Source of the DNA: an uncultured Anaerolineales bacterium
GTDB lineage: Bacteria > Chloroflexota > Anaerolineae > B4-G1 > SLSP01
Reading direction: 5' to 3'
Assembly: GCA_964501335.1 (NCBI GenBank)
Contig: CAZCTC010000010.1
Location: forward strand, 64,001 to 128,000
Length of the DNA stretch: 64,000 bases
The notes under the pieces are model-generated. The model was not told the origin of the DNA, did not search any database, and saw nothing but the letters and a program-made list of their open reading frames with translations. Positions 18,295-42,533 of this stretch are shown piece after piece. Within the stretch, counting starts at the first letter, position 1, and each line of letters opens with the position of its first letter. Both the position numbers and the translations under genes were made by a program.

Positions 18295-20967
18295 ATGGAT
18301 AAAGAGTGGATTTTGCCTTTGGATGCCGGGGGGGCTCAATTAGAGGCTGTGGGAGGTAAAGGGGCCAATCTGGCCCGGCTGATGGCGGCCGGTTTTTCGG
18401 TTCCAGGTGGTTTTTTGGTTACCACGTCGGCCTATGAAGCCTTTGTTGCGGCCAATGATTTGCGTCGGCGAGTCTCTGTCCTGGCTGAGACAGTTGCCGT
18501 AGACGATCTGGCAGCTCTGGAGGCTGTGTCGGCGGAGATTCGCGCCGGTTTTGCCCGGGGGACGATGCCGCCGGCGTTGGCAGAAAGTTTACAGGATGCT
18601 TATCGTCAGTTGGGCCAGCCGCCTGTAGCCGTGCGTTCTTCGGCGACGGCGGAAGATCTGCCGGATTTTTCTTTTGCCGGACAACAGGATACGTTTCTTA
18701 ATGTGATCGGTGAGGATGCTCTGTTGCGGGCCGTGGTGGATTGTTGGAGCAGTTTGTGGACGGCCCGGGCTATCGGTTATCGCAAACGTAATGCAGTCAG
18801 CACGGGCGGGTTGGCGTTGGGTGTAGTGGTTCAACAGATGGTGAACAGCGAGGTTTCGGGGGTGCTCTTTACGGCCAATCCCCTCACCGGGGATCGGACT
18901 GAAGTGGTGATCGATGCGACCTGGGGATTGGGGGAGGCTTTGGTTTCCGGGCAGGTGGAGCCGGATCATTATGTAGTAGCGGCAGGGACGTTGATTTTGC
19001 AGAAGGCTGTGGGGGCCAAAGCGGTGATGATCCGGCCGGCAGACACCGGGGGCGTGGTTTCATTGGAGGCCGGTCTCTCGCATCAACAGGCGCTGCCCGA
19101 TCCGGTGATTTTGGAACTGGCGCAGTTGGGGCGGAAGATCGCGGTGCTTTACGGCGTGCCGCAGGATGTGGAATGGGCCTGGGCGGAAGGGAAGCTTTTT
19201 GTGCTTCAGGCGCGGCCGATCACTTCTCTTTACCCGCTGCCGGACGGGCTGCCGGAGAATCCGCTGGCTGTGTTGATTTCCTTTGGGGCGGTACAGGGGA
19301 TGTTGGATCCGATGACGCCGTTGGGGCGCCAGTGGATTCAGAGTTGTATTCCAGTCATTGCCCGGCGTTTTGGGATGAAGAAGGATTTGAAGACGCAGAC
19401 CGTATTGGTGGAATCGGCAGAACGGATGTTTATGAATCTCACACCCGTCGCTCATAATAAAGTGGGGCGAAAGCTTATGCGGGCGGCCATGGGGGCGGTC
19501 GAACCGGCGGCGCGGGCCGGATTGGAGTTGTTGTGGGACGATCCTCGATTGGCCCATCCCGGGCCGTTGCGGTTTCGTTCGGTTGGGGCTCTGGTGCGAG
19601 GGATGGGACCGGTATTTGTGCGGGTCATCGGCAATCTGTTACGGCCCGAATCGATGCGGCCGCGGGTAGATAAACGGGTGGAAGCGATGCTCGCTGATTT
19701 TGCCCAACGCAGCGCGGCGGCAGCCTCTCTGGCGGATCGTTTAACTCTTTTTCAGGTGATTTGGGAAAGTATCCCCGGGATTATTTTGGGGGAACTTTTG
19801 CCGGGGATGGTCGCCGGGATGGCGATGTTTGTTGCTTTGATGAAGCTGGCCGAAGCGGTGCCCGGGGGGGATCTGGAGGTCCTGGCGGTGACGCGAGGGA
19901 TGCCGGGAAACGTCACGACGGAGATGGATCTGGCTTTGTGGGTAACCGCGCGACAAATTCAATCTGATCCGGCGGTGAAGGCCTTCTTTTTGCAGACGCC
20001 GGCGGAGCAACTGGCGGCGGATTGGATGGCCGGAACTCTGCCTTCGATGGCTCATTCGGCGATTCAGGCTTTTATGGATCGTTATGGGATGCGCGGGTTG
20101 GCGGAGATCGATCTGGGGCGGCCCCGTTGGCGAGAAGAGCCGGTTCCGGTTTTTCAGTCCTTGCAGAGCTATTTACAGATCACCGATCCGGAGCTGGCGC
20201 CGGATGCCGTTTTCAGCCGGGGAGCCGTGGCCGCGGAAGCGGCTTTGACGTATCTGGTAACCGCATTACGGTCCCGGCCGGGCGGCTGGTTGAAGGCGCG
20301 GCTGGCGCGAGCTGCAGGGCGACGGGTGCGGTTGTTGCTGGGGATTCGTGAAAGTCCCAAGTTTTTTGTCATTCGGCTGATGGGAATGTTGCGGATGGCT
20401 TTGTTGGAAAGCGGTCGCGATCTGGTTTCCCGCGGGATCTTGCAGGCGCCGGACGATCTTTTTTTTCTGGGGTTTGCCGAGTTGCAATCTCTGGCCGACC
20501 ATGAACCAGGAGAATGGAGGGCGCTGGTCGATCAACGGCGCGCGGTTTATCAACGTGAACTGCGGCGGCGGCAGATTCCCCGGGTGTTATTGGGCGATGG
20601 GCGGGCTATCTTTGAAGGGTTGAGTGCGGATGCCGAAGCCGCCGGAGTGGGCGAGCTGGTCGGCAGTCCTGTTTCGCCGGGGGTGGTTGAAGGTGGGGTG
20701 CATGTGGTGTTAGATCCCCGGGGAGTTCAGTTGATCCCCGGTGAAATCCTGGTTTGTCCGGGAACCGATCCTTCCTGGACCCCCCTGTTCCTTTCGGCGG
20801 GAGGACTGGTGATGGAGGTCGGTGGGCTGATGACCCATGGAGCCGTCGTGGCGCGAGAGTACGGCATTCCGGCGGTTGTGGGCGTCCATGATGCGACGAC
20901 GCGGTTGCAAACCGGACAACGGATTCGAGTTGACGGAGCAACCGGGAAAATTGTGATTTTGGCGTGA
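18295..20967 (+). CDS. PEP-utilising phosphotransferase with PpsA / rifampicin-phosphotransferase-like architecture
   Basis: N-terminal PPDK_N ATP-grasp segment (GGKGANLARL...GFSVPGGFLVTT). C-terminal swivel phosphohistidine domain (GGLMTHGAVVAREYGIPAVVGV). The start is placed at the ATG with RBS gaaagg (MDKEW); the ORF could extend to 18250. Confidence 0.8.
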   Translation: MDKEWILPLDAGGAQLEAVGGKGANLARLMAAGFSVPGGFLVTTSAYEAFVAANDLRRRVSVLAETVAVDDLAALEAVSAEIRAGFARGTMPPALAESLQDAYRQLGQPPVAVRSSATAEDLPDFSFAGQQDTFLNVIGEDALLRAVVDCWSSLWTARAIGYRKRNAVSTGGLALGVVVQQMVNSEVSGVLFTANPLTGDRTEVVIDATWGLGEALVSGQVEPDHYVVAAGTLILQKAVGAKAVMIRPADTGGVVSLEAGLSHQQALPDPVILELAQLGRKIAVLYGVPQDVEWAWAEGKLFVLQARPITSLYPLPDGLPENPLAVLISFGAVQGMLDPMTPLGRQWIQSCIPVIARRFGMKKDLKTQTVLVESAERMFMNLTPVAHNKVGRKLMRAAMGAVEPAARAGLELLWDDPRLAHPGPLRFRSVGALVRGMGPVFVRVIGNLLRPESMRPRVDKRVEAMLADFAQRSAAAASLADRLTLFQVIWESIPGIILGELLPGMVAGMAMFVALMKLAEAVPGGDLEVLAVTRGMPGNVTTEMDLALWVTARQIQSDPAVKAFFLQTPAEQLAADWMAGTLPSMAHSAIQAFMDRYGMRGLAEIDLGRPRWREEPVPVFQSLQSYLQITDPELAPDAVFSRGAVAAEAALTYLVTALRSRPGGWLKARLARAAGRRVRLLLGIRESPKFFVIRLMGMLRMALLESGRDLVSRGILQAPDDLFFLGFAELQSLADHEPGEWRALVDQRRAVYQRELRRRQIPRVLLGDGRAIFEGLSADAEAAGVGELVGSPVSPGVVEGGVHVVLDPRGVQLIPGEILVCPGTDPSWTPLFLSAGGLVMEVGGLMTHGAVVAREYGIPAVVGVHDATTRLQTGQRIRVDGATGKIVILA

Positions 20968-21176
20968 ACATTTTGCTGAGTGCTCTCGTTTAACGAATAA
21001 GCCGGACAAAAGGGACCGGAATGGAATTGCTTTTATTGATTAAAACATGGATCACAGCCATCCGGGCGCTCCAGAATCAGATCTCTGTCTGGTTTTTGGA
21101 GCAAATTGCGGTTGGACGGCGATTTTTCTTCAGATATGAAGGCTCAGAGGCCGAACCGGCCACGCCTGATTTGATT

Positions 21177-21716
21177 ATGAGCTTTCAGCAAGGGCATCCC
21201 GAAGCATTTGAGCTGATCTATCAACGATTTAAGAACTATGTCTATCGGGTGGCCTGTTTTTTGGTGCGGGACGATGTGGAAGCTGAGGATGCAGTTCAGG
21301 AGACTTTTCTGGATGTGTTGCATGGATTGCCGCATTATGTACCCAGTGAGAAGGCCGCCTTTGAGACCTGGCTTTATCGGGTTACCATCAATCGTTGTAC
21401 TACCCGATTGCGGCGTAAGGTTTTGCCGTCGACCGATTGGGATGAGATGACGGAACAGATGGAGAATTTACCGACTCCTGATCTGGAAGGCGATCCGGAA
21501 GCGGTTTGTCTGGGCCATGAGGAGACCCTGACGTTGTGGCGGGCCGTCGATACATTGTCGGAGGAGCATCGCGCGGTATTGGTGTTGCGTTATGGACAGG
21601 ATTTGGGGTATGAAGAGATTGCTCAGGTTTTAAATATCAATTCAGGGACGGTGAAATCACGCCTGTTCAATGCTCATCGCAAGTTGCGGTCGGTTTTAGA
21701 GGCCATGAGTGGATAA
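21177..21716 (+). CDS. ECF-family RNA polymerase sigma factor (sigma-70 regions 2 and 4)
   Basis: Region 2 FELIYQRFKNYVYRVACFLVRDDVEAEDAVQETFLDV. Region 4 HTH LSEEHRAVLVLRYGQDLGYEEIAQVLNINSGTVKSRL. The start is placed at internal Met 21177 for a 179-aa product; the ORF is open from 21021. Confidence 0.8.
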   Translation: MSFQQGHPEAFELIYQRFKNYVYRVACFLVRDDVEAEDAVQETFLDVLHGLPHYVPSEKAAFETWLYRVTINRCTTRLRRKVLPSTDWDEMTEQMENLPTPDLEGDPEAVCLGHEETLTLWRAVDTLSEEHRAVLVLRYGQDLGYEEIAQVLNINSGTVKSRLFNAHRKLRSVLEAMSG

Positions 21717-21732
21717 TGGCAGGGGGTGGTGA

Positions 21733-24700
21733 GTGAGTAGAAACCATGTGGAGCAGGAATTGCTGGCCTATCTGGACGGAGCATTGGATGCACGGACCCG
21801 AAGCCGGGTCGAAGCGCATCTGAAGGAATGCCCGACCTGTACGGCTGAGCTGGCGCGGTTGAAGCGGCAACGCCTGATATTGGGGCAGGTTTTCAAGATC
21901 AAATTGGGGGAGAAGCAGTTGCCGGCGGCGGCCGATCGCCGGATTCGGACCCGGCTGCGTCAGGAAGCGGAGCCACGCCGGGAATGGTGGTGGGCCTGGC
22001 GCGGTGGGTTGACGCAGGTGGCCCTGGCTTTTATGGCAGTGGCGATGGTGATCACGGCCTGGCCGTTTCTGTCACCTTCGACCTCTCCTGCCGTTCTTCC
22101 GACTGTTCCGCCGCGGACCGAGGTGATGGGACAGAGCCGGCTGGCGCCGGGAAGCCGGGCGGCGATGCGGATCGTGGTGAGAGAACAATTATCTCCGCAG
22201 CCGGTTTCGGGGGCCGAAATTGAAGTGCGGTTGGGCAAGGTGCCCGGACTGGCGGCGTTGGTCTATCGGGGCCGGACGGATGCGGAAGGCATGGTCCAGG
22301 CGGCCTTTACGGTGCCGGAAGAGCTGGAAGGGGCGGTCAATCTGGTGGTGAAGACCGTGGTGGCCGGGCAAAGTGGAGAGATCGTGCGGCCGATTGTGGT
22401 GGTGCGCAGCGCCCGTCTTTTTTTGAATTCCGACAAACCGGTTTATCGGCCCGGGCAGGAGCTGTTTGTGCGGGCGCTGGCATTGGATGCGATGAACCTT
22501 CGCCCGGTGGTTGGGGGGCAGGTGGCTTTTGATATTTTGGACAGCAAGGGGCGTTCCTTAAATCATCAGGTATTGAGGGCTTCGGATTATGGGGTGGCTG
22601 CCTTTACCTGGAAAGTAGCCGATGATTATGCCGACAAGTCGTTGACTTTAAGAGCGACCATCAGTGATACCGTGTCGGAACGTCAGGTAATGGTAGGGGC
22701 TTATCCGCGGGCAGCTTTTCGGCTGAATGTTGAACCGGGACGGACCTTTTATGCCCCCGGGAATCGGGTGACCGGTACCGTTCAGGCTGATTATTTTTTT
22801 GGAAAGGCAGTGGCGGACGCCATGGTGCGGATTGTCGGGCGGCAGGGGGGGGCGGCTGGCGTCATCATAGCCGATGTCAGCGGGCGTACGGATGCCCTGG
22901 GACGGTTCGATTTTACTTTCAATTTGCCACTGGAAGATAGCTGGCGTGAGTTGGGTGGGCAGCCGGACATTCTCTATCTGACTGTGTCGGCGACCGACAG
23001 CGCCGGTCGGACCGAAGGAGTACGTCGGGAGATGCCGGTTTCCCGGGCGGGTCTTCTGATCCAGGCGGTTCCGGAGCGGGGCAGTTTGAAGCCGGGGGTT
23101 GAGAATATCATCTACATTTCGACGGCTTATCCAGATGGACAACCGGCTGCGACGGAGATGGAAATTATGGTTGGAGATGTGTCTTATCAGGTAGCGACCG
23201 ATTCTTACGGCATGGGGGAATTTCGGCTGAAGCCTTTGACTGAGACGGTGATGCTGGAGATTGTCGCTCATGATGAGCAGGGGCAGACGGGCGCCCGGGT
23301 TTTCAATCTGGCAAGCTTTTATGGATCGAAGAGTGTGTTAGTGCGAACCGATGGAGCGATCTATCGAGTAGGGGATACCCTGCATGTGGAAGCTTTGACG
23401 GCGGGGGAAATTCGTCAACTCTATCTGGATGTGTTGCAGGCCGGGCAGTCGGTGGCTATGCTTTCGGGGTTTGTGGAAGAGGGGCGGGCGGCCTGGGCGA
23501 TCGATTTGGACAGCTCGCTGGCAGGGACTCTGGAACTGCATGTGTATGCGGCGGACGATGAGACCCTGGAGGATAGCCGTTCTGTGGTGGTCGATCCGGC
23601 GAATGAGGTTGCCGTGCAGGTGACGGCGGATCGGGCGGTCTATCGGCCTGGAGAGCAGGCCCATTTACAGTTTCAGACAACTTTGACGGAGTCCGGGAAG
23701 TCCCTGCCGGCGCAGGCTTTGCTGGGAGTGGGTGTTGTTGATGCGTCGGTTTATGCGTTGGAACAGTTGCCGGTGGGCTTTGCCCGCACCTATTTTCTGT
23801 TGGATAAAAAATTATCCAGTGTGCCTCAATTGGGTTTTGCCGTGGATCAGGGTTTGGCGGCCGGGTCGGAAAATAGAGCGGTTCGTCTGGCGCAGAGTCG
23901 CGCTGCTGAGGCGGCCTGGGCCTTGGCCGGCGATTCTCCGATCGGAGAAAGGAGGCTTTATGCATTGTCCGTTTCTTATGACGTGCGTTCATCGGCGCAA
24001 AATCAGAAGTCGCCTTCCGATGGGGTGCGGAGACTGTTGGCAGGAATCCTTCTGATATTGGCGATTTTTCTGTGGGTTGTTGTAATTCAGACCCTGTTCC
24101 GGTTGGAGTTAGTGAGAGCGGCTTTGCCCTGGATGGGGGGGGGGATGGTATTTGCTTTTCTGGTCTCACCGCTGCTCTTCTCGCTTACTTCATGGTTGGT
24201 TAATGGCTTGGTTTCGGTGTTGGGGAACTGGATGTTGTTGGTTTTCCTGATTCCGATGGTGGGCCTGTGGGGATTTTTGTGGCGGCAGGGGTGGCGCCGG
24301 CAGGATGTCAGGTTACAGGAAGCGATGGCCATCGTGGGCGCCTATGGGATTTGTGAGAGTTTGCTGATCGTATTGACCCGTGAAAGCCAGAATTTGGCGG
24401 AATTCGAGACGGTGGTGGCGGTCTTTTCTTTTCTGGTATTGCTGGGAGGCATGCTCTTGCTGGGGGCCAGTTTGTGGTTCGAGGGGCATCGTAAGCCGGC
24501 CGGATGGAGCCTGGCTCTGGTGATCGTGTGGGTGATGCTTTCTTTGGCCTTGCCGTCGATCCCGGCCATTTCTTCCCGATTGACTCAGACATTGGGCGAG
24601 CCGGTGCTTTATGCCGGGCCGTTGGGCTGGTTGAGCGGGTGCGCGGCTCCGATGAGTCCTACTGCGGCTCCGACTACAGAGGCTCCGGCTGTTGAGGAGC

Positions 24701-25323
24701 CGACCGAAGCGGCTACAGAAGAAGCAACGGAAGCGCCGACCGAAGAGGCAACTCAGGAAATTCCTACTGCGGCTCCGACTGCTGCGCCGCCGACTGCTAC
24801 GCCCGTTCCAACGCCGGGAATTGAAGTGCCGATGGAACCTTTCCCGTTGCGGCAGTTTTTCCCGGAGACCCTTTACTGGAATGCAGCAGCTGAGACCGAT
24901 GCTGAAGGGCGATGGGATCTGGATTTGCCGTTGGGGGACAATGTGACGACCTGGCGGGTGACGGCGCTGGCTTCAACTCAAGATGGTGCTTTGGGGGCCG
25001 TAGTTTACGATCTGCCGGTCTCTCAGGATTTCTTTATGGAGCTGAATTTACCTGAAACGGTGCGTAGCGGGGCCGAGGTGACCGGTACAGCTACGTTGCA
25101 CAACTATTCACAGGTCAGTCAGACCGTGCAGGTGCAGTTCGCGCCGGCGGACTGGTATGAGGTGCAGGTTTCTTCCGGGACGGTAACGTTAGGACCGGGG
25201 CAGGTAGTTGCCGTGGACTTTGTGTTGAAAGCCGGGCAGGTTGGGAAGTTCACTCTGTTGGTTAAGGCAAACGGGGAGGGAGTCCAGGATGCTCTGGCCC
25301 GGGAAGTCGTGGTCCATGAGTGA
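21733..25323 (+). CDS. anti-sigma factor (zf-HC2 N-terminus) fused to a very large extracytoplasmic domain, an internal multi-TM block, a Pro/Thr/Glu/Ala-rich linker and a C-terminal beta-rich domain
   Basis: GTG start 17 nt after the sigma gene. N-terminus ELLAYLDGALD...HLKECPTCTAEL is the anti-sigma zinc-finger signature. TM helix at about aa 95. About 8 predicted TM helices at aa 760-950. Linker APTTEAPAVEEPTEAATEEATEAPTEEAT. Confidence 0.75.
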   Translation: MSRNHVEQELLAYLDGALDARTRSRVEAHLKECPTCTAELARLKRQRLILGQVFKIKLGEKQLPAAADRRIRTRLRQEAEPRREWWWAWRGGLTQVALAFMAVAMVITAWPFLSPSTSPAVLPTVPPRTEVMGQSRLAPGSRAAMRIVVREQLSPQPVSGAEIEVRLGKVPGLAALVYRGRTDAEGMVQAAFTVPEELEGAVNLVVKTVVAGQSGEIVRPIVVVRSARLFLNSDKPVYRPGQELFVRALALDAMNLRPVVGGQVAFDILDSKGRSLNHQVLRASDYGVAAFTWKVADDYADKSLTLRATISDTVSERQVMVGAYPRAAFRLNVEPGRTFYAPGNRVTGTVQADYFFGKAVADAMVRIVGRQGGAAGVIIADVSGRTDALGRFDFTFNLPLEDSWRELGGQPDILYLTVSATDSAGRTEGVRREMPVSRAGLLIQAVPERGSLKPGVENIIYISTAYPDGQPAATEMEIMVGDVSYQVATDSYGMGEFRLKPLTETVMLEIVAHDEQGQTGARVFNLASFYGSKSVLVRTDGAIYRVGDTLHVEALTAGEIRQLYLDVLQAGQSVAMLSGFVEEGRAAWAIDLDSSLAGTLELHVYAADDETLEDSRSVVVDPANEVAVQVTADRAVYRPGEQAHLQFQTTLTESGKSLPAQALLGVGVVDASVYALEQLPVGFARTYFLLDKKLSSVPQLGFAVDQGLAAGSENRAVRLAQSRAAEAAWALAGDSPIGERRLYALSVSYDVRSSAQNQKSPSDGVRRLLAGILLILAIFLWVVVIQTLFRLELVRAALPWMGGGMVFAFLVSPLLFSLTSWLVNGLVSVLGNWMLLVFLIPMVGLWGFLWRQGWRRQDVRLQEAMAIVGAYGICESLLIVLTRESQNLAEFETVVAVFSFLVLLGGMLLLGASLWFEGHRKPAGWSLALVIVWVMLSLALPSIPAISSRLTQTLGEPVLYAGPLGWLSGCAAPMSPTAAPTTEAPAVEEPTEAATEEATEAPTEEATQEIPTAAPTAAPPTATPVPTPGIEVPMEPFPLRQFFPETLYWNAAAETDAEGRWDLDLPLGDNVTTWRVTALASTQDGALGAVVYDLPVSQDFFMELNLPETVRSGAEVTGTATLHNYSQVSQTVQVQFAPADWYEVQVSSGTVTLGPGQVVAVDFVLKAGQVGKFTLLVKANGEGVQDALAREVVVHE

Positions 25324-25350
25324 GTGGGGGTATTAAAAAAGGAGATAGGG

Positions 25351-25770
25351 ATGGAACGGAATGAGAAAAAGATTAAACGTCCTTTTTTGCGGAAACGCTG
25401 GGCTTTGATTTCCGGTCTGGCGCTGGCTTTTTCGGCAGCCTGTGCCGTGCCGGTAACCTGTTATACTCCTATGCCGTCAACGATTGAGCCGTCAGCGACG
25501 CCGACCCAAACGCCGACTCCCACGCCTACGCTTTTTTTCGTCTGTTATACGCCGACGCCTTCGCTGCAACCGATTGATACGTTGACGCCAACCTGTTATA
25601 CGGCTACTCCGATAGCGACTCCCACGCCAGTTTTGATTCCGCCGCCCGAGGCGACCTTCACGCCGATTCCGGCCACGCCTACGCCGATGCCGCAGACATT
25701 GGATGAATTGCGGGAGAAGTTGCTGGTCGAGGGGCGGTTTCCGGAGGGTGTGGTTAAGGAATTGAAGTAG
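25351..25770 (+). CDS. secreted Pro/Thr-rich Cys-Tyr-motif peptide with the conserved C-terminal EGRFP motif (precursor-like, type C)
   Basis: RBS ggag 7 nt upstream. Signal-peptide-like N-terminus. Three CYT(P/A) motifs. C-terminus LDELREKLLVEGRFPEGVVKELK. Confidence 0.6.
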   Translation: MERNEKKIKRPFLRKRWALISGLALAFSAACAVPVTCYTPMPSTIEPSATPTQTPTPTPTLFFVCYTPTPSLQPIDTLTPTCYTATPIATPTPVLIPPPEATFTPIPATPTPMPQTLDELREKLLVEGRFPEGVVKELK

Positions 25771-25783
25771 TTGTGGAGGTTAT

Positions 25784-26128
25784 ATGGAACTCGGAAACAG
25801 AAATCGAGGACGGTTGTCGCGCAAGTTGAAATTGTTGGCGGCTTCCGGGATTGCGTTGGGCCTGGCGGCCCGTTGTGCGGCCGAGCCTACTCCTGAAGTG
25901 CTCTGTTATGCTCCGGTTGCGCCGACTCCGACTGAAACGCCCATGGTGATGTGTTATGAACCCACCATGTCGCCCATTGAGGAGACGCCCACGATCACGC
26001 CAACGGCAACGCTTACCGGTTCTCCGGAAATCACCATTACACCAACTTTGGAATCCCGGAGCACTTTAATGGAACAATTATTGACTGAAGGACGTTTTCC
26101 AAAATGTGTGGCGGAGGAATTGAAATAA
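25784..26128 (+). CDS. secreted Cys-Tyr-motif peptide, type A (copy 1)
   Basis: RBS ggagg. N-terminus MELGNRNRGRLSRKLKLLAASGIALGLAA. Motifs LCYAP and MCYEP. C-terminus RSTLMEQLLTEGRFPKCVAEELK. Confidence 0.6.
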   Translation: MELGNRNRGRLSRKLKLLAASGIALGLAARCAAEPTPEVLCYAPVAPTPTETPMVMCYEPTMSPIEETPTITPTATLTGSPEITITPTLESRSTLMEQLLTEGRFPKCVAEELK

Positions 26129-26154
26129 TTAAATTAATCTAAAGGGATTGATGT

Positions 26155-26547
26155 ATGGGCCAGAAAAAGAGAAGGTTATCGCGTAAGGCGATGTTGGTGG
26201 TGGTTTCTGGAATGGCCGTGGGAATGGCGGCAAGTTATAATGCGGGAGTTGCCATGCCGCCGCCCACGCCTACGCCCACTGCCATTTATTTGACCCCGGC
26301 GGCACTTCCGAACGAAAGCACTGTTTTGCCGCGTTTTCATCCACGCGACATAAGCTGTTATATAGTAATTGATGTAACCCCAGAAGAGAGCTGGATCTCG
26401 TCTCCGGATGGAGCTACCGCGACGCCGACTCCCACACCTACTCCGACTTTGATAGGGAGTTCGGGACCGACCTCTCTGGATCTTTTACGGGAGCAGTTGC
26501 TGGCAGAAGGGCGATTTCCGGATGAGGTGGCGAAGGAATTGAAATAG
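26155..26547 (+). CDS. secreted Cys-Tyr-motif peptide, type B (copy 1)
   Basis: N-terminus MGQKKRRLSRKAMLVVVSGMAVGMAAS. Motif SCYIVIDV. C-terminus LDLLREQLLAEGRFPDEVAKELK. Confidence 0.6.
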   Translation: MGQKKRRLSRKAMLVVVSGMAVGMAASYNAGVAMPPPTPTPTAIYLTPAALPNESTVLPRFHPRDISCYIVIDVTPEESWISSPDGATATPTPTPTPTLIGSSGPTSLDLLREQLLAEGRFPDEVAKELK

Positions 26548-26637
26548 CGAAAATCCTTTTCGGGTGATTTGTTTTTAGTGTCCCACAAAGGGATTTTGCC
26601 CGGTAAGAAGCGACGCGCTGGAGGGAGGAAGGGGCAT

Positions 26638-26982
26638 ATGGAAAGCAAAAACAGAAATCGAGGCCGGTTGTCGCGTAAGTTGAAATTGTTGGTGGCTTCC
26701 GGGATTGCGTTAGGGTTGGCGGCGCGCTGTGTGGCTGAGCCTACGCCGGAAGTGACCTGTTATGCAGTGGCGGCGCCGACGCCGACTGAAACGCCGATGG
26801 TGATGTGTTATGAACCCACCATGCCGCCCATGGAGGAGACGCCCACGATCACGCCGACGGCAACGCTTACCGGTTCTCCGGAGATCACCATAACACCAAA
26901 TGTGGAATCCCGGAGCACTTTAATGGAACAATTATTGACTGAAGGACGTTTTCCAGAATGTGTGGCGGAGGAATTGAAGTAA
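26638..26982 (+). CDS. secreted Cys-Tyr-motif peptide, type A (copy 2)
   Basis: Around 90% nucleotide identity to 25784-26128. RBS ggaggaagg. Motifs TCYAV and MCYEP. C-terminus ...EGRFPECVAEELK. Confidence 0.6.
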   Translation: MESKNRNRGRLSRKLKLLVASGIALGLAARCVAEPTPEVTCYAVAAPTPTETPMVMCYEPTMPPMEETPTITPTATLTGSPEITITPNVESRSTLMEQLLTEGRFPECVAEELK

Positions 26983-27008
26983 TTAAATTAATCGAAAAGG
27001 ATTGATGT

Positions 27009-27428
27009 ATGGGCCAGAAAAAGATAAAGTTATCGCGTAAGGCGATGTTGGTGGTGGTTTCCGGAATAGCCGTGGGAATGGCGGCAAGTTATAATGCGGG
27101 AGTTGCTATGCCGTCGCCCGCGTCCATATTCACGCCCACGTCCACGCCAACTCCCTCTTTCGTTCATTTGCTTTCGAACGGAATTGCCGTTTCGTCGCCC
27201 CATCGTCCAATCGGCGTGAGGTGTTATCTTGTAATTGATGTAACTGAGGTAACTCCAGAAGAAAGTGGGATCTGGTATCCTGATGGAGTTTTCGCGACGC
27301 CGACTCCAACGCCGACTCCCACTCCGACTTTGATAGGGAGTTCGGGGCCGACCTCACTGGATCTTCTACGGGAACAGTTGCTGGCGGAAGGGCGTTTCCC
27401 GGATGCGGTGGCGAAGGAGTTGAAGTAA
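27009..27428 (+). CDS. secreted Cys-Tyr-motif peptide, type B (copy 2)
   Basis: Paralogue of 26155-26547. Motif RCYLVIDV. C-terminus LDLLREQLLAEGRFPDAVAKELK. Confidence 0.6.
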   Translation: MGQKKIKLSRKAMLVVVSGIAVGMAASYNAGVAMPSPASIFTPTSTPTPSFVHLLSNGIAVSSPHRPIGVRCYLVIDVTEVTPEESGIWYPDGVFATPTPTPTPTPTLIGSSGPTSLDLLREQLLAEGRFPDAVAKELK

Positions 27429-27433
27429 GAAGC

Positions 27434-27703
27434 ATGATAAAAAAGCGGAGTAACAAAATCTCCGGGGGGCCGCGCCGGAAGCCGGGGGCGGATTTTTTGG
27501 TCCAGATGTTTCAGGAGTTACACGATGCTGAGGTACGTTCTACTCCGGATTTGAGCATCTGTTACGAGATCCAGGCTGTGGAACCTGATCCGGTAACCGG
27601 GGCAGCTCAACCGGAGAAATCCCGGCAGCTTTTGCGAAGCCGGTTGGTCAAAACCAACCGCTTTCCTGCCGGTGTGGAGGGTGAGTTGGGGGAGGAACGA
27701 TGA
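27434..27703 (+). CDS. sixth family member: no signal peptide, degenerate C-terminal motif, translationally coupled to the radical SAM gene
   Basis: 89 aa. Motif SICYEIQAV is related to the type B SCYIVIDV. C-terminus LLRSRLVKTNRFPAGVEGELGE. Its stop overlaps the rSAM start (ATGA). Confidence 0.5.
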   Translation: MIKKRSNKISGGPRRKPGADFLVQMFQELHDAEVRSTPDLSICYEIQAVEPDPVTGAAQPEKSRQLLRSRLVKTNRFPAGVEGELGEER

Positions 27704-28815
27704 AAAGAAAAGAAGGAAAGCGGACCTGGCTTTCGCGGTGGCGGCAGGTGCTGGCTCAGGTAGAGATGCGGCAGGCGCAAAAGAGAGAGCCGGAACGGGC
27801 TTCTTATTTTATTCTGGAGTTGACGGCGCGTTGTAACCAGGATTGCCGGTATTGTTATAATGTCTGGAAGGCGCGCGAGGGGATGGTCCAACGGGAGATG
27901 ACGACCGAAGAGTGGTGCACGTTGATCGGTCGGTTACAGGACGAGATGGGCTGTCGGCAGGTGACTTTTTCGGGCGGGGAGCCGCTGCTGCGAGAGGATT
28001 TCCGTGAGATCCTGGCCTTCTGTCACCGGCGAGGGTTGGAGAGTATTGTGATTAGCAATGGCCGGTATCTGGACCAGGAGATGCTGGAATTCTGTCTGGC
28101 CCACGGGGTGAAGATGTTTGAAGTGACGCTGCTGGGTTCCAATGCGGCGACCCATGACGGATTGACGCGGGTGCCGGGCAGTTGGGAGCGGGCTCTTTCC
28201 GCGATGACCCGGCTTTACAAGGCCGGGGCTACCTGGTGCGGTGTTTTTGTGGCGACGAGTGAAAATATCGGGCAGGTGCGGGAGACGGTGGAGATGATGA
28301 TTGCGCTGGGGGCGAAGGTCATTATGTTTAACCGGTTCAATCCTGGCGGAGAGGGGGCCCGGCATCGCGATTTGATGCCGGCACCGGATGATGTGCAGAA
28401 GGCGTTGCGGGTTGTGGATGAGCTGGCTGTGGCGTATAATTTCCCTGCAACGGCTTCGGTGCCGGTGATGCCCTGTCTGGTCGATCTACACGGCTTTCAA
28501 CGGGTGCAATTTGGGTTTTGTGCGGCGGGGCGGGCGGGTTCTTATCCCACCATCGGGCCGGATGGCCGGGTGCGCCCTTGCAATCACAGTGCGACCATTC
28601 TGGGGGATTTTCATCAACAGTCGATGCAGGAGATGTTGGAGGGGCCTGCGTTGCGGGCTTTTACGGCCGTGGTGCCTGAGGTTTGCCGGCCCTGTCCGGG
28701 GCTGGATCAATGCCGGGCGGGGTGCAGGGCGGCTGCAGAGGTCTGTTTTGGTTCATTGGAAGAGCCGGAACCCTGGTTGAAGGCTAATTTAGAGCGATTG
28801 CCGCCTATGGTTTAG
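27700..28815 (+). CDS. radical SAM enzyme with a C-terminal SPASM-type auxiliary Fe-S cluster domain (peptide/protein maturase type)
   Basis: CX3CX2C motif CNQDCRYC near the N-terminus. SAM-binding GGEPLL. C-terminal Cys-rich block CAAGRAG...CNHS...CRPCPGLDQCRAGCRAAA. 371 aa. Confidence 0.85.
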   Translation: MKRKEGKRTWLSRWRQVLAQVEMRQAQKREPERASYFILELTARCNQDCRYCYNVWKAREGMVQREMTTEEWCTLIGRLQDEMGCRQVTFSGGEPLLREDFREILAFCHRRGLESIVISNGRYLDQEMLEFCLAHGVKMFEVTLLGSNAATHDGLTRVPGSWERALSAMTRLYKAGATWCGVFVATSENIGQVRETVEMMIALGAKVIMFNRFNPGGEGARHRDLMPAPDDVQKALRVVDELAVAYNFPATASVPVMPCLVDLHGFQRVQFGFCAAGRAGSYPTIGPDGRVRPCNHSATILGDFHQQSMQEMLEGPALRAFTAVVPEVCRPCPGLDQCRAGCRAAAEVCFGSLEEPEPWLKANLERLPPMV

Positions 28816-28825
28816 GCACATTGAG

Positions 28826-29150
28826 GGATGAAAAAGGAATTTCACCACAGAGGCGCAGAGATCACAGAGAAGAAGAAGAGAGGAGATTTTCTGAAACGTA
28901 AAAAGTAATGATCTGTGGGTTTGGTGCAACGGTGAAGGGAGGGGGTAAGCGGATGTTGCCGGGATGCTTTTGGAAAAAGCCATGTTTTTGCGCGCATTCT
29001 GATGCGCGCAAAAACATAAATAAAAAACTCTCTCTGCCTATCCAGCGCGGCGTATTGTAAGGGGAGAGTGCCATTTACGGGTGAGGAGGATTTTTCCAGA
29101 CAGGTGTAACGCACTCGGATCTTGCAATGATGGGCGGTTTGCCTTCAGAT
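28826..29150. repeat. dispersed intergenic repeat element, copy B (left arm, hairpin 28982-29017, right arm)
   Basis: Left arm ggatgaaaaaggaatttcaccacagaggcgcagagatcacagagaagaagaagagaggagattttctgaa matches 6995-7062. Hairpin atgtttttgcgcgc-attctgat-gcgcgcaaaaacat. Right arm aaataaaaaactctctctgcctatccagcgcgg. Confidence 0.8.
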
Positions 29151-32074: not shown

Positions 32075-32180
32075 CGGTTCTGGAAAAAGCCATGTTTTGG
32101 TGCGCCTTCTGAGGCGCACCAAAACATCAACAAAAAAATGCTCTCCTTCCATCCTGTGATGTGCTTCTTACGAGAAAAGT
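32075..32180. repeat. dispersed intergenic repeat element, copy C (hairpin 32092-32127)
   Basis: ggttctggaaaaagcc-atgttttggtgcgcc-ttctga-ggcgcaccaaaacat-caacaaaaaaatgctctcc... Confidence 0.75.
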
Positions 32181-32679: not shown

Positions 32680-32901
32680 GGATGCTCCTTATCGTATTTG
32701 AGAATGAAGGCCATCATTATAGGCGTAAACAGAAATAAGCCCATATTTTCCGGGCTGACGGCGCAGGTTGGAATTTCTTAAAAAAAGAAAATTGCTTCTG
32801 AAATCGTGAACATTTTGGGGAGTGGTCTCGTGTAATGAATAAGTCGCAGCTACAACGCCCCAAGATTTAGTAGCGAAATCAGTTAGTTAATAAGGAGGAT
32901 T

Positions 32902-34515
32902 GTGATGAACGCTTTTACACGGATGTTAAGTGGAGGAGTGATTTTAGGAACGCTGTTCCTGACGGCCTGTGGTACCCCTGTTCCTACCGGGGCTCCGACT
33001 CAAGAAATGCGGCTTGAGTCAGCAGCTACGGAAGAAGCCACGGAGGCGCCTTATGATTATGCGCCCGCAGCGACTGCGGCGCCCGCGTTTGACGAGGCGC
33101 TTGGGGGACCTTCGACCGGAGGATCGGCCGAACCGAACGATCAACCTTACGGCGATGTTTTCTTTGAGAACTATGGGGTCAATCCGGTCATCGACACGGA
33201 AGATGATCATTTTTCGACCTTTGCCGTGGATGTGGACACGGCTTCTTACACGGTAATGCGCCGCTATCTGGCCGACGGCAATCTGCCGGACAAAGACTCG
33301 GTGCGGGTCGAGGAATACATCAATTTCTTCGATCAGGAATATACGCCCCCAACGGAAGGCGCTTTTGCCATCCATCTGGAAGGATCGCCGGCGCCTTACG
33401 GTGAGAACAATTACTATCTGGTGCGGGTGGGGTTGAAGGGTTATGAAGTTCCGGCTGAAGAGCGGAAGCCGGTGGTACTCACCTTTGTGATCGATGTTTC
33501 CGGGTCGATGGGAGAAGGAAACCGGCTGGCATTGGTTAAGCAGGCTTTGCAACTGCTGGTGCAGAACCTTCGCCCTACGGATAAAGTTGCCGTCGTGGTG
33601 TACGGCGATGTGGCGCATGTGGTGCTGGAACATACCCCCGTTTCGGAATCCAACACCATTTTGCAGGCGATCAATCGTTTGCAGACCGAAGGGGCTACCA
33701 ATGCTGAGGATGGGCTGAAATTGGGTTATCAACTTGCAGATCAGGCTTTTGAAGATGGTGCCATCAACCGGGTGATCCTCTGCTCGGATGGGGTAGCCAA
33801 TGTAGGAAATACGGGGCCCGATTCTATTTTGCAGCAGATTCGCCGCTATGCCGACAATGGTATTTTTATGACGACCGTGGGCTTTGGGATGGGGAATTAC
33901 AACGATGTGCTGATGGAGCAACTGGCCGATGACGGCGACGGTTTTTACGCTTATGTGGACGATATCAAAGAGGCCGAGCGGGTCTTTGTGAACGATTTGA
34001 CTTCATCGTTACAGGTGATCGCCAAGGATGCCAAAATCCAGGTCGATTTCAATCCCCAGGTGGTGGCTCGTTATCGGCTGATCGGTTATGAGAATCGGGA
34101 TGTGGCCGATGAAGATTTCCGCAACGACAATGTGGATGCGGGTGAGATCGGGGTCGGGCACAGCGTCACGGCGCTTTATGAGGTGAAATTCCAGCGGGAG
34201 ATCGATCCTCAGGCGACGGCGATGACCGTGGCGGTGCGGTATGCCGATCCCGACAGCGGGAATGTGACAGAGATTTCCCGTTCGATCGCTCAGGCCGATC
34301 TGGCAACTGCTTTTGAGGCGACCTCGCCGCGGTTCCAGTTGGATGCGGTGGCGGCTGAATATGCGGAGATTTTGCGGGAGAGTTACTGGGCGCGCGGTTC
34401 AACGTTAGAAGCCCTGGTTTCTCAAGCGCGGCGGATTGCCGATGCTTTGCCGCAAGATGCAGAGGTGCGGGAATTTGCGGATCTGGTAGCCCGAGCCGCT
34501 CAGTTGCGGAGATAA
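32902..34515 (+). CDS. vWA-domain lipoprotein (YfbK-like architecture)
   Basis: Lipobox LTACG. MIDAS motif VLTFVIDVSGSMGEG, followed by CSDGVANVG. 537 aa. Confidence 0.8.
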   Translation: MMNAFTRMLSGGVILGTLFLTACGTPVPTGAPTQEMRLESAATEEATEAPYDYAPAATAAPAFDEALGGPSTGGSAEPNDQPYGDVFFENYGVNPVIDTEDDHFSTFAVDVDTASYTVMRRYLADGNLPDKDSVRVEEYINFFDQEYTPPTEGAFAIHLEGSPAPYGENNYYLVRVGLKGYEVPAEERKPVVLTFVIDVSGSMGEGNRLALVKQALQLLVQNLRPTDKVAVVVYGDVAHVVLEHTPVSESNTILQAINRLQTEGATNAEDGLKLGYQLADQAFEDGAINRVILCSDGVANVGNTGPDSILQQIRRYADNGIFMTTVGFGMGNYNDVLMEQLADDGDGFYAYVDDIKEAERVFVNDLTSSLQVIAKDAKIQVDFNPQVVARYRLIGYENRDVADEDFRNDNVDAGEIGVGHSVTALYEVKFQREIDPQATAMTVAVRYADPDSGNVTEISRSIAQADLATAFEATSPRFQLDAVAAEYAEILRESYWARGSTLEALVSQARRIADALPQDAEVREFADLVARAAQLRR

Positions 34516-41585: not shown

Positions 41586-42533
41586 TTGTTTCAACATATT
41601 TTAGTTCCTTTGGACGGATCGGTGTTAGCAGAATGTGTTTTGCCTCACGTTTTGACGATGGCGCGCACTTTCAACAGTCGGATTACCCTCTTAAAAGTTT
41701 TACAGCAGGAAGCTTCGTTTGAACAAATTGACCCTGTTTTCTGGCATATTGCCAAGACCGAAGCTCAGGCTTATCTGGCTCAATGGGCGGTAAAATTGCA
41801 GACTTTGGGCATAAGTGTTGAGACTCAGGTGCTGGATGGGCAACCTGCTGAGCGGGTGTTGGAATTTGCGCAACTTAATGATGTGGATCTCATTCTCTTA
41901 AGCAGCCATGGTCAGAGTGGATTGAGCGAATGGAATGTCAGTAGCGTGGTGCAGAAAATTATTATGCGGGCGAAATCTTCGATCATGATTATCCGGGCTT
42001 ACCAGCCGCTCCATTCGCAATGGGAAGCGCTGGTTTATCATCGATTTTTATTACCGTTAGATTGCTCGGCCCGGGCTGAGTGTGTCCTGCCGGCCGCGAT
42101 TATGTTGGCACGCTCTCACCATGTTCCGGTTTTGTTGGCCCATGTGGTTCAGCCTTTTGAATTACTTTGTCAGGATAGGGTTTCTTCTGAGGAACTGGAG
42201 GTGATTTCGAGAATGAATGAACGTAATCGTCTAGAGGCGGAACAATATTTTCAGCAAATTATCGCGCGTTATGAGGCTGATTTTAAACCGAACGTTTTGG
42301 TAAATTCCAGTGTTGGAGCTGCTTTGCATGATTTAGTAGAGCAGGAAAAGGTGGATTTGGTAATTCTAAGCGCGCATGGGCGCTCCGGGAATGTTCGTTG
42401 GCCCTATGGAGGGGTAGTGGTTAATTTTATTGCTTATGGTCATACCCCTTTGTTGATTGTTCAAGATTTACCTGTAGATCGAGGACCGATTTCTTTGGTA
42501 GATGTTTCTATGCAGGTACAAAAAGGCCATTGA
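41586..42533 (+). CDS. universal stress protein with tandem UspA domains
   Basis: Segments HILVPLDGS...LILLSSHGQSGLSE and LPLDCS...LVILSAHGRSG. Probable TTG start. Confidence 0.8.
   Translation: MFQHILVPLDGSVLAECVLPHVLTMARTFNSRITLLKVLQQEASFEQIDPVFWHIAKTEAQAYLAQWAVKLQTLGISVETQVLDGQPAERVLEFAQLNDVDLILLSSHGQSGLSEWNVSSVVQKIIMRAKSSIMIIRAYQPLHSQWEALVYHRFLLPLDCSARAECVLPAAIMLARSHHVPVLLAHVVQPFELLCQDRVSSEELEVISRMNERNRLEAEQYFQQIIARYEADFKPNVLVNSSVGAALHDLVEQEKVDLVILSAHGRSGNVRWPYGGVVVNFIAYGHTPLLIVQDLPVDRGPISLVDVSMQVQKGH

Follow-up and report, generated by a model that had tools for sequence, protein, structure and literature searches.

The stretch of DNA analysed here (64,000 nucleotides (nt) of contig CAZCTC010000010.1 from an uncultured Anaerolineales bacterium, called the window below) carries six tandem genes for small proteins with Cys-Tyr dipeptides, peptides 1–6, directly upstream of a gene for a radical S-adenosylmethionine (SAM) enzyme with a SPASM domain, and this pairing of an enzyme with Cys-Tyr proteins is probably an unrecognised protein-modification system. 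From comparison with related loci we favor, with somewhat better than even confidence, the idea that the six small proteins serve as substrates for the adjacent enzyme, which would modify them at Cys-Tyr in the cytoplasm, before export, guided by a helix downstream of the modified sites. The window appears to hold the short-peptide branch of a much wider family of enzymes and protein substrates.

Six small proteins with a common architecture

The seven genes lie on the + strand at the positions given for them in the initial annotation of this DNA, which our open reading frame (ORF) list reproduced (Table 1). The stop codon of the last peptide gene overlaps the start codon of the enzyme gene (ATGA), GGAG-type ribosome-binding sites precede most of the ATG starts, and longer alternative starts exist for peptide 1 (GTG at 25324) and peptide 4 (TTG at 26569). 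Alignment of the six peptides displays a basic and hydrophobic N-terminus (absent in peptide 6), a Pro/Thr-rich middle part and a C-terminal block, L..LL.EGRFP..V..EL, in which L, L, R, F, P, V, E and L are invariant. This block, the longest conserved one among the window peptides, aligns in 6/6 of them and is degenerate in peptide 6, as had been claimed; at the DNA level, five of the copies form a 63-nt repeat family. The Cys-Tyr contexts quoted earlier were likewise all found, with 3, 2, 1, 2, 1 and 1 dipeptides in peptides 1 through 6, respectively, and signal peptides (assigned by inspection and with family regular expressions) are present in five of the six, also in agreement with the annotation. 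Peptides 2 + 3 and 4 + 5 are a ~860-nt tandem duplication (86–89% nt identity), and dN/dS values of 0.26 for peptides 2/4 and 0.29 for peptides 3/5 indicate that these reading frames are under purifying selection. Peptide 1 corresponds to public protein P0126, and peptide 6 is annotated as a gene in public assemblies and matches the family profile (below) with E = 2.8e-12.

A canonical PROSITE-type lipobox, [LVI][ASTVI][GAS]C, occurs in the window only in peptide 1; the signals of peptides 2 and 4 end in a Cys with Arg at position −1 (LAARC), those of peptides 3 and 5 have no signal Cys, and peptide 6 has no signal at all. The Arg-preceded residue, Cys31 of peptides 2 and 4 (nt 25874–25876 and 26728–26730), is unlike the usual lipobox rule of Gly/Ala/Ser at this position, and it may mark a lineage-specific lipobox or have some other role.

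Searches with a family profile found 62 proteins at E ≤ 1e-3 among 1.84 billion representatives, a number so small that they must be a specific family and not Pro/Thr low-complexity noise, and 85 relatives of the peptides were found by profile search, none of them named and none with a Pfam domain. Pfam and NCBIfam scans of the six peptides and of ten partner proteins from related loci (below) gave no match, and family members are labelled "hypothetical" in their sources, so the possibility raised earlier that the peptides belong to a known secreted-protein family found no support. Every one of 120 family members has 1–5 Cys-Tyr, and 291 of the 333 Cys residues that follow the lipobox lie in Cys-Tyr; the Cys-Tyr part, which the initial annotation had described as variable, is instead the most conserved feature across the family. 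The C-terminal motif is kept in 112 of the 120, where a median of 40 residues separates it from the last Cys-Tyr. The export signals that had been noted are indeed there, and their type can be refined to mostly lipoprotein in the family (PROSITE-type lipobox in 75/120) and twin-arginine translocation (Tat) in one subgroup (motif in 15/120). Peptides of the loci with orthologous enzymes have a lipoprotein-like signal (TTAC-S, SAAC-S), 1–3 Cys-Tyr with the consensus TPxP-φ-x-CY-[TE]-[PA], a TFTSPLSPLPTPTP linker and then the ending EARxLLxxxLLAEGRFPxDVARELxS. The profile search also recovered other forms: P0246, P0253 and P0249 have 4–8 repeats (eight Cys-Tyr repeats in P0249), and P0248, P0250, P0252 and P0254 are Tat proteins made up of an N-terminal peptide-like module and, after it, a helical domain that has its own, second Cys-Tyr. 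The latter four link the short peptides to the ~230-amino-acid (aa) Tat proteins discussed below.

An enzyme with no RRE domain

The assignment of the enzyme to the radical SAM/SPASM proteins was borne out by Pfam matches above the cut-offs to PF04055 (79 bits, 6e-22) and PF13186 (31.5 bits, 2e-07), and its conserved Cys residues and AlphaFold2 (AF2) fold also place it in the radical SAM superfamily with SPASM; Fer4_12 is matched above its cut-off as well. Eight Cys residues after the barrel are conserved (C259, C274, C294, C329, C332, C338, C342 and C349), enough for full ligation of two auxiliary clusters. The AF2 model (pLDDT 94.5) consists of an N-terminal helix (residues 2–28) that is found in the close clade only, a partial TIM barrel and the SPASM part, and more distant relatives begin ~10 residues before CxxxCxxC. 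No PF05402 or other N-terminal domain was found by Pfam and no winged helix is present in the AF2 model, that is, the enzyme has no recognition element (RRE) of the kind found in enzymes that act on peptides made by the ribosome and then modified post-translationally (RiPPs).

A Foldseek search gave SkfB, SuiB, PqqE and the anaerobic sulfatase-maturating enzyme (anSME) as the nearest solved folds (13–21% identity), all of which are peptide or protein maturases; SkfB is the best match (E = 6e-17), and anSME has a TM-score of 0.66–0.68. Sequence search of the PDB placed PqqE first (3.5e-17), and the best NCBIfam similarity is also PqqE (115 bits vs. a cut-off of 381), followed by AhbD, NirJ2 and StsB. 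No family reached its cut-off in NCBIfam scans of the window enzyme and four distant relatives. With the enzyme below every NCBIfam family cut-off and the peptides matching nothing in Pfam or NCBIfam, the earlier statement that the combination fits no described RiPP class still holds.

The N-terminal helix of the close-clade enzymes (nt 27700–27790, residues 1–30 in the window; LLRWQQELAAEG, TLLRWQQELAAEGVRL) resembles the peptide motif (LLRERLLAEG; RLLRERLLAEGRFP), a likeness that may reflect a helix–helix docking surface or chance.

Enzyme and peptides accompany each other in both directions

The enzyme has ~50 orthologue clusters at 62–70% identity, all from Chloroflexota/Anaerolineae metagenome bins, and a second tier of hundreds at ~40%. 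Co-occurrence was taken from all the orthologue loci that have upstream sequence (L001, L002/L003, L004, L008 and L009); all six carry 1–2 peptide ORFs directly upstream, ending 3–4 nt before the enzyme gene, and none of the close homologues there occurs without such peptides, a situation that the initial annotation had named as unfavorable to its proposal. Abutting peptide and enzyme genes were also seen in L001, L002, L004, L005 and L006, and many peptide relatives lie on contigs of the same size as the contigs with enzyme matches. In the reverse direction, metagenome contigs were scanned with the back-translated motif [ED][RQK]LLAEGRF, the co-occurrence search that had been recommended, and the enzyme gene adjoins the peptide gene in 11/11 of the loci retrieved (64–67% identity; in L090 a fragment of 66 residues is 50% identical). 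Nine of these loci have it directly downstream, and in the other two, which belong to the Tat-signal subgroup, it is divergent.

By two-way co-occurrence and translational coupling, gene-encoded precursor-like peptides are here genetically coupled to a putative tailoring enzyme, and in this broad sense the pair would be a RiPP system. The enzyme/peptide pairing in the RiPP layout proposed earlier stands; as the system extends beyond short peptides (below), "modified exported protein" may fit it better than "natural-product RiPP".

A wider clade with unrelated Cys-Tyr partners

Species-representative genomes of GTDB (one per species) were scanned with the signatures C[NT][HQN]xCx[YH]CYN and [ML][FL]NRFNPGG, and at least 553 stretches encode relatives of the enzyme, whose clade signatures are CN[HQ]xCxYCYN[VA]W and NRFNPGG. 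Among the matches listed are members of the Chloroflexota, Planctomycetota, Myxococcota, Armatimonadota, Patescibacteria, Acidobacteriota, Zixibacteria, Bacillota, Bacteroidota and archaea (Aciduliprofundum; an archaeal contig bearing MCM and eIF genes was found separately). Enzymes of 35–45% identity, which come from at least ten phyla and archaea, are encoded downstream of exported or membrane proteins that are unrelated to one another. The ORFs directly upstream are not homologous between these groups: they encode ~230-aa helical proteins with a Tat signal in Chloroflexota, proteins of 260–800 aa in Planctomycetota, proteins with multiple transmembrane segments and a C-terminal tail in Patescibacteria and archaea, 116–140-aa proteins with no signal in Zixibacteria, Acidobacteriota, Bacteroidota and Dehalococcoidales, and, in Bacillota, a protein with five C-terminal Cys-Tyr repeats. 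Nearly all of these partners have a φ-[TSVM]-C-Y-[EDKVIA]-[PMA] site and, 10–20 residues further on, two helices joined by a G-x-φ-x-P turn; in L010 the order is the opposite, with the helix N-terminal and five Cys-Tyr repeats after it. Across phyla the Cys-Tyr is invariant, and the helix segment is a hydrophobic/Gly/Pro pattern with no invariant residue. That otherwise unrelated distant partners have in common only Cys-Tyr and then a helix-turn-helix supports the follower-type recognition that had been suggested from the window peptides.

Tyr follows Cys at 99 of 434 positions (22.8%) in the upstream ORFs and at 108 of 7956 (1.4%) in a background of 445,000 residues of other ORFs from the same loci, a 16-fold enrichment, and an adjacent upstream ORF with Cys-Tyr is present in 35/41 loci whose enzyme is 38–60% identical, compared with 7/21 loci below 35%. 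An all-against-all comparison of neighbours in 60 loci found that only the upstream partner recurs, other genes being present in ≤4 loci each, so that the module consists of two genes; no conserved protease, transporter or RRE protein was found near the enzyme in these 60 loci.

The ~230-aa partner family comprises 637 clusters, among whose source names [quoted passage not shown] alone is informative. Its signal ends in an invariant Cys after Arg (LLLTRC; alignment column C24), like the LAARC of window peptides 2 and 4; the first Cys-Tyr comes immediately past the signal and the second lies within HVWRSNAPITCYEP, and the family has invariant residues at His91, His122, Trp58 and Asp179. A 236-aa member was modelled with AF2 (pLDDT 78) and is all-helical, with both Cys-Tyr in its two lowest-confidence non-helical loops (24–35 and 133–136) and with the second site followed by a helix (140–160), a turn and another helix (166–184). 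Both sites are thus predicted to be accessible. A fold search of this model against the PDB gave no significant match (best E = 1.1).

Taking these partners together with the window peptides, we put forward, with a little less than even confidence, the more general proposal that a widespread, RRE-independent radical SAM/SPASM clade installs an undescribed modification on the invariant Cys-Tyr by way of a downstream helix-turn-helix follower, on substrates that are exported by Sec, Tat or lipoprotein routes.

A proposed model for Cys-Tyr modification

We infer the following sequence of events. The RRE-less enzyme would dock on the C-terminal amphipathic helix-turn-helix, L..LL.EGRFP..V..EL, as a "follower" recognition element and would use a 5'-deoxyadenosyl radical to modify each Cys-Tyr upstream of it. 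Since both Cys and Tyr are invariant, a reaction on both is favored, and the most likely chemistry would join or oxidise the two residues, for example in a thioether between Cys-S and a Tyr carbon or in a related cross-link. Alternatives are a formylglycine-type oxidation of Cys and a Tyr-directed reaction of the PqqE/MftC kind, for which the eight conserved Cys of the SPASM part and two precedents centred on Tyr, PqqE and MftC, leave room. Because radical SAM enzymes need reduced Fe-S clusters and SAM, the modification would occur in the cytoplasm and precede export, by the Sec/lipoprotein route or, in one subgroup, by Tat; the Tat signals of that subgroup and of the ~230-aa family fit cytoplasmic maturation before export. 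Modification followed by export is a logic known for anSME/sulfatases and for QhpD/QhpC, and likewise for Tat substrates. In the window, the product would stay on the membrane's outer face as a Pro/Thr-rich stalk with one to three modified sites, the substrate gene would have been amplified to six copies, and the module would be transcribed from an autoregulated extracytoplasmic function (ECF) sigma promoter together with an anti-sigma factor fused to alpha-2-macroglobulin (A2M) domains (below). Across the clade, a new cross-link or cofactor borne by proteins at the cell surface could result.

Several observations weigh against this model or parts of it. The lack of an RRE, a protease and a dedicated transporter is untypical of a RiPP cluster; the last Cys-Tyr is 30–60 residues from the helix in the window peptides and only ~10–20 in the distant homologues; the Cys-Tyr contexts of peptides 3 and 5 are atypical (SCYIVIDV, RCYLVIDV), and peptide 6 has no signal peptide. 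The top profile similarities of the enzyme (PqqE, AhbD, NirJ2 and StsB) are far below their cut-offs and point to no single chemistry. In addition, by analogy with anSME, the eight conserved Cys of the SPASM region may fully ligate both auxiliary clusters, so that a substrate thiolate would find no open site; this makes the thioether guess weaker.

The Cys-Tyr proteins could instead be partners of the enzyme and not its substrates, for example scaffolds, carriers or acceptors of a small-molecule product, or proteins that bind an enzyme-made cofactor through Cys and Tyr. The top NCBIfam similarities are to cofactor enzymes of the PqqE, AhbD and NirJ type (heme, PQQ), Tat signals are typical of cofactor-bearing proteins, the ~230-aa partners have their invariant His, Trp and Asp residues, and the enzyme has no RRE; but the scores with all of those profiles fall short of the family cut-offs by a factor of 3 to 5, peptide and protein maturases are the nearest folds, cofactor-pathway genes do not recur nearby, and the window peptides, as unstructured Pro/Thr-rich chains, offer no pocket for a cofactor. 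We therefore consider this arrangement unlikely. It is also conceivable that the enzyme acts on the C-terminal segment itself, e.g., on R-F-P of EGRFP, and that Cys-Tyr serves metal or redox binding, disulfides or anchoring after export. The length of the conserved block in the window peptides and its retention in nearly all family members speak for this reading; in many RiPPs, too, a conserved block adjoins the core. This is at odds with a Cys-Tyr that is invariant across phyla beside a helix that has no invariant residue, with the N-terminal helix and five subsequent Cys-Tyr repeats of L010 and the eight repeats of P0249, and with the presence of 1–5 Cys-Tyr per single helix, as expected of sites and a docking element, respectively, and we regard it as decidedly improbable.

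The remaining explanation assumes no functional link at all: the peptides would be secreted Pro/Thr-rich lipoproteins of the ordinary sort, encoded in an envelope operon under ECF control, and the radical SAM gene would merely travel with them by synteny. The sigma factor, anti-sigma/A2M fusion and von Willebrand factor A (VWA) protein of the operon or regulon (below) need no radical SAM enzyme, and the close orthologue loci come from related Chloroflexota in which synteny alone could explain adjacency. Yet adjacency is kept where the sigma and anti-sigma genes are missing (L004, L089–L093, L095/96) and across phyla and domains with only the Cys-Tyr unit in common, and Cys-Tyr is 16-fold enriched, so we find this explanation strongly disfavored and give it very little credence. 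All three fit the cross-phylum pattern less well than does the enzyme–substrate reading.

Comparison with known systems

Sactipeptide and ranthipeptide maturases (AlbA, SkfB, CteB, PapB) resemble the window enzyme in being radical SAM/SPASM proteins encoded beside Cys-containing precursors, often with repeated Cys motifs; six C-x3-D repeats, for example, are the target of PapB. The best structural match is to SkfB, and StsB is among the top NCBIfam similarities. In those enzymes an N-terminal RRE binds an N-terminal leader, whereas the window enzyme has no RRE, the docking-like segment of its peptides is C-terminal and their N-terminus is an export signal; moreover, donor and acceptor would here be adjacent residues. 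Assignment to this group was rejected, given a StsB score of 88 bits vs. 625 and the missing N-terminal RRE, and the AlbA and PapB models are matched only by distant relatives (43–61 bits vs. cut-offs of 340–850).

anSME is likewise an RRE-less radical SAM/SPASM enzyme with eight conserved Cys for two auxiliary clusters. Its cytoplasmic target is a Cys within a short linear motif, and the substrate bears a signal peptide and is exported afterwards. The anSME motif, C/S-x-P/A-x-R, lies in a sulfatase domain; that of the window and its relatives is hydrophobic-C-Y-x-P/M/A in non-sulfatase proteins. The sequence similarity is confined to the SPASM part (E ~6e-4), and translational coupling to tandem small substrates, as seen in the window, is not usual for anSME genes. 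With no sulfatase domain in the peptides and a C-Y-x-P/A motif, the anSME/sulfatase assignment was also rejected. QhpD is a radical SAM/SPASM enzyme that installs Cys-based thioether cross-links in the small protein QhpC, which functions outside the cytoplasm. QhpC differs in its Cys-Asp/Glu links, Trp-derived quinone, dedicated transporter and multi-gene operon, and no genes of the QhpD/QhpC system were found in Pfam scans of the operon and window or in the comparison of recurrent neighbours.

PqqE/PqqA and MftC/MftA share radical SAM/SPASM chemistry on a Tyr of a small peptide, and PqqE is the best match in both NCBIfam and the PDB sequence search; these enzymes differ in requiring a PqqD-type RRE partner, in their sites (E-x3-Y or C-terminal V-Y) and in products that are released small molecules. 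A pyrroloquinoline quinone (PQQ) system was rejected at 114.7 bits vs. 381 for TIGR02109, with no PqqA- or PqqD-like gene in the operon, and mycofactocin at 73 bits vs. 265 for TIGR03962, with peptides that end in ELK and not Val-Tyr. TIGR04133, "radical SAM/SPASM protein with lipoprotein" (a hypothetical equivalog), by its name a curated, uncharacterised pairing of a radical SAM/SPASM enzyme with a lipoprotein, is matched by the window enzyme at 79 bits vs. a cut-off of 425 and was likewise rejected; the peptides have no NCBIfam match.

In its logic, the system is most like the bufferin group. Bufferins and oxazolins are made from Cys-modified precursors with Sec signal peptides in place of leaders; lipoprotein signals are present in ~16% of Buf2, precursor genes can lie in tandem, and sigma/anti-sigma genes are found in Buf1 clusters (PMC12452194). 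They use a multinuclear iron oxidase and a DUF2063 partner, so the resemblance is one of logic and not of ancestry, and no DUF692/MNIO, DUF2063, DUF2282- or BUF_6/12Cys-type domain was found in the operon or its flanks; the bufferin assignment was rejected as well.

We found no publication or curated model for the enzyme or the peptides, in a search that did not extend to subscription literature. Large-scale mining of radical SAM RiPP enzymes starts from the RRE domain (PMC10288494), and an RRE-less clade would therefore be missed; radical SAM/SPASM maturases being a main source of new peptide chemistry, this clade is a blind spot of such mining. The clade unites features in an unusual way: a proposed recognition element at the C-terminus, precursors exported by signal peptide, lipoprotein or Tat routes, and a two-residue Cys-Tyr target across phyla and domains. 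Signal peptides on RiPP precursors have been called highly unusual, and bufferins are the only ones for which experiments have demonstrated Sec-dependent export in the native host (PMC12452194). Should the modification prove real, many uncultured lineages would have a new post-translational mark on their exported proteins, and SPASM enzymes a new mode of recognition, and we consider the chance that the system hides new chemistry to be substantial. The six natural variants in one operon, with their different numbers and contexts of Cys-Tyr, are a compact test system.

The operon and its regulation

From 21021 to 28815 all genes are on one strand with gaps of 5–90 nt, in the order sigma factor, anti-sigma/A2M fusion, six peptides and radical SAM enzyme (Table 1). 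Orthologues of the sigma factor are present upstream of the module in L001, L002/L003, L009 and L088, and those of the anti-sigma/A2M fusion upstream of the peptides in L001, L002/3/94, L009, L088, L097 and L098; both genes are missing in the L004-type and Tat-type lineages, so the association is frequent and not obligatory. NCBIfam anti-sigma models match the fusion below their cut-offs, and several transmembrane helices are predicted in its middle part (~residues 720–950), an unusual topology for an A2M-like protein.

Table 1. Features of the Cys-Tyr operon and related elements in the window.
Feature	Position (nt)	Strand	Description
ECF-type promoter-like site	20965..20992	+	TGAAC-N17-CGTTTA; 29 nt before sigma gene
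ECF-type sigma-70 factor	21021..21716	+	First operon gene; Pfam Sigma70_r2, Sigma70_r4_2
Anti-sigma (zf-HC2) fused to A2M-like domains	21733..25323	+	Pfam zf-HC2, MG2, A2M_BRD, A2M
Peptide 1 (139 aa)	25351..25770	+	Lipoprotein-type signal FSAAC; Cys-Tyr at 25459, 25543, 25594; motif 25708–25767
Peptide 2 (114 aa)	25784..26128	+	Signal ends LAARC; Cys-Tyr at 25904, 25952; motif 26066–26125
Peptide 3 (130 aa)	26155..26547	+	Signal peptide without Cys; Cys-Tyr at 26356; motif 26485–26544
Peptide 4 (114 aa)	26638..26982	+	Duplicate of peptide 2; Cys-Tyr at 26758, 26806
Peptide 5 (139 aa)	27009..27428	+	Duplicate of peptide 3; Cys-Tyr at 27222; signal without Cys
Peptide 6 (89 aa)	27434..27703	+	No signal peptide; Cys-Tyr at 27560; degenerate C-terminal motif
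Radical SAM/SPASM enzyme (371 aa)	27700..28815	+	CxxxCxxC at C45/C49/C52; eight conserved Cys in SPASM part; no RRE domain
Palindrome	28980..29019		18-bp stem; after stop codon of enzyme gene
Second ECF-type motif	32807..32834	+	23/28 nt identical to first; 68 nt before VWA gene
VWA/YfbK_C protein	32902..34515	+	Pfam vWF_A, VWA, YfbK_C

The ECF-type motif TGAAC-N17-CGT.TA is conserved before the sigma genes of L002 and L009, and it has exactly two matches in the window, where 0.22 are expected; the two are nearly identical (TGAACATTTTG..GAGTG.TCTCGT.TA). The second match precedes the VWA/YfbK_C gene, whose product is a probable member of the same ECF regulon; its orthologue in L001 (71% identity) lies within the operon, between the A2M gene and the peptides and behind this same motif. 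The two motifs together suggest a small ECF regulon, and the anti-sigma/A2M fusion and VWA protein, with their common promoter motif, suggest a role in envelope stress or envelope protection. This sigma/anti-sigma-A2M context is also a physiological handle on the system. The same ECF motif also precedes the gene that comes next after the radical SAM gene in two related loci, L002 (9274–10299) and L008 (1510–2561); this gene encodes a lipoprotein of ~320 aa that has a membrane anchor at its C-terminus, and no homologue of it was found in the window.

The palindrome after the enzyme gene is the probable end of the operon; apart from it, scans for sigma-70 promoters and terminators gave results no better than chance. 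The palindrome is part of a ~90-nt intergenic element with the core CCATGTTTTTGCGCGCATTCTGATGCGCGCAAAAACATAA, which is present at ~28955–29045 and again, at ~80% identity, at ~32075–32160; it appears to be either a mobile or repetitive (REP/MITE-like) element or a shared terminator. No tRNA gene or Rfam match was found in the window.

Elsewhere in the window, a 2867-aa ORF (42502–51105) combines GT2, glucoamylase-like and GH94 domains in the manner of a cyclic beta-1,2-glucan synthase and is preceded by a tandem universal-stress-protein gene (41586–42533). Two proteins have VWA domains, one fused to a solute-binding-protein domain (2298–4094) and the YfbK-like one described above (32902–34515). 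GC skew is positive in all 2-kb bins of the window (0.03–0.31; 1–64000), with the long ORFs mostly on the + strand, and G+C content falls from ~0.58 to ~0.45 around 40–46 kb.

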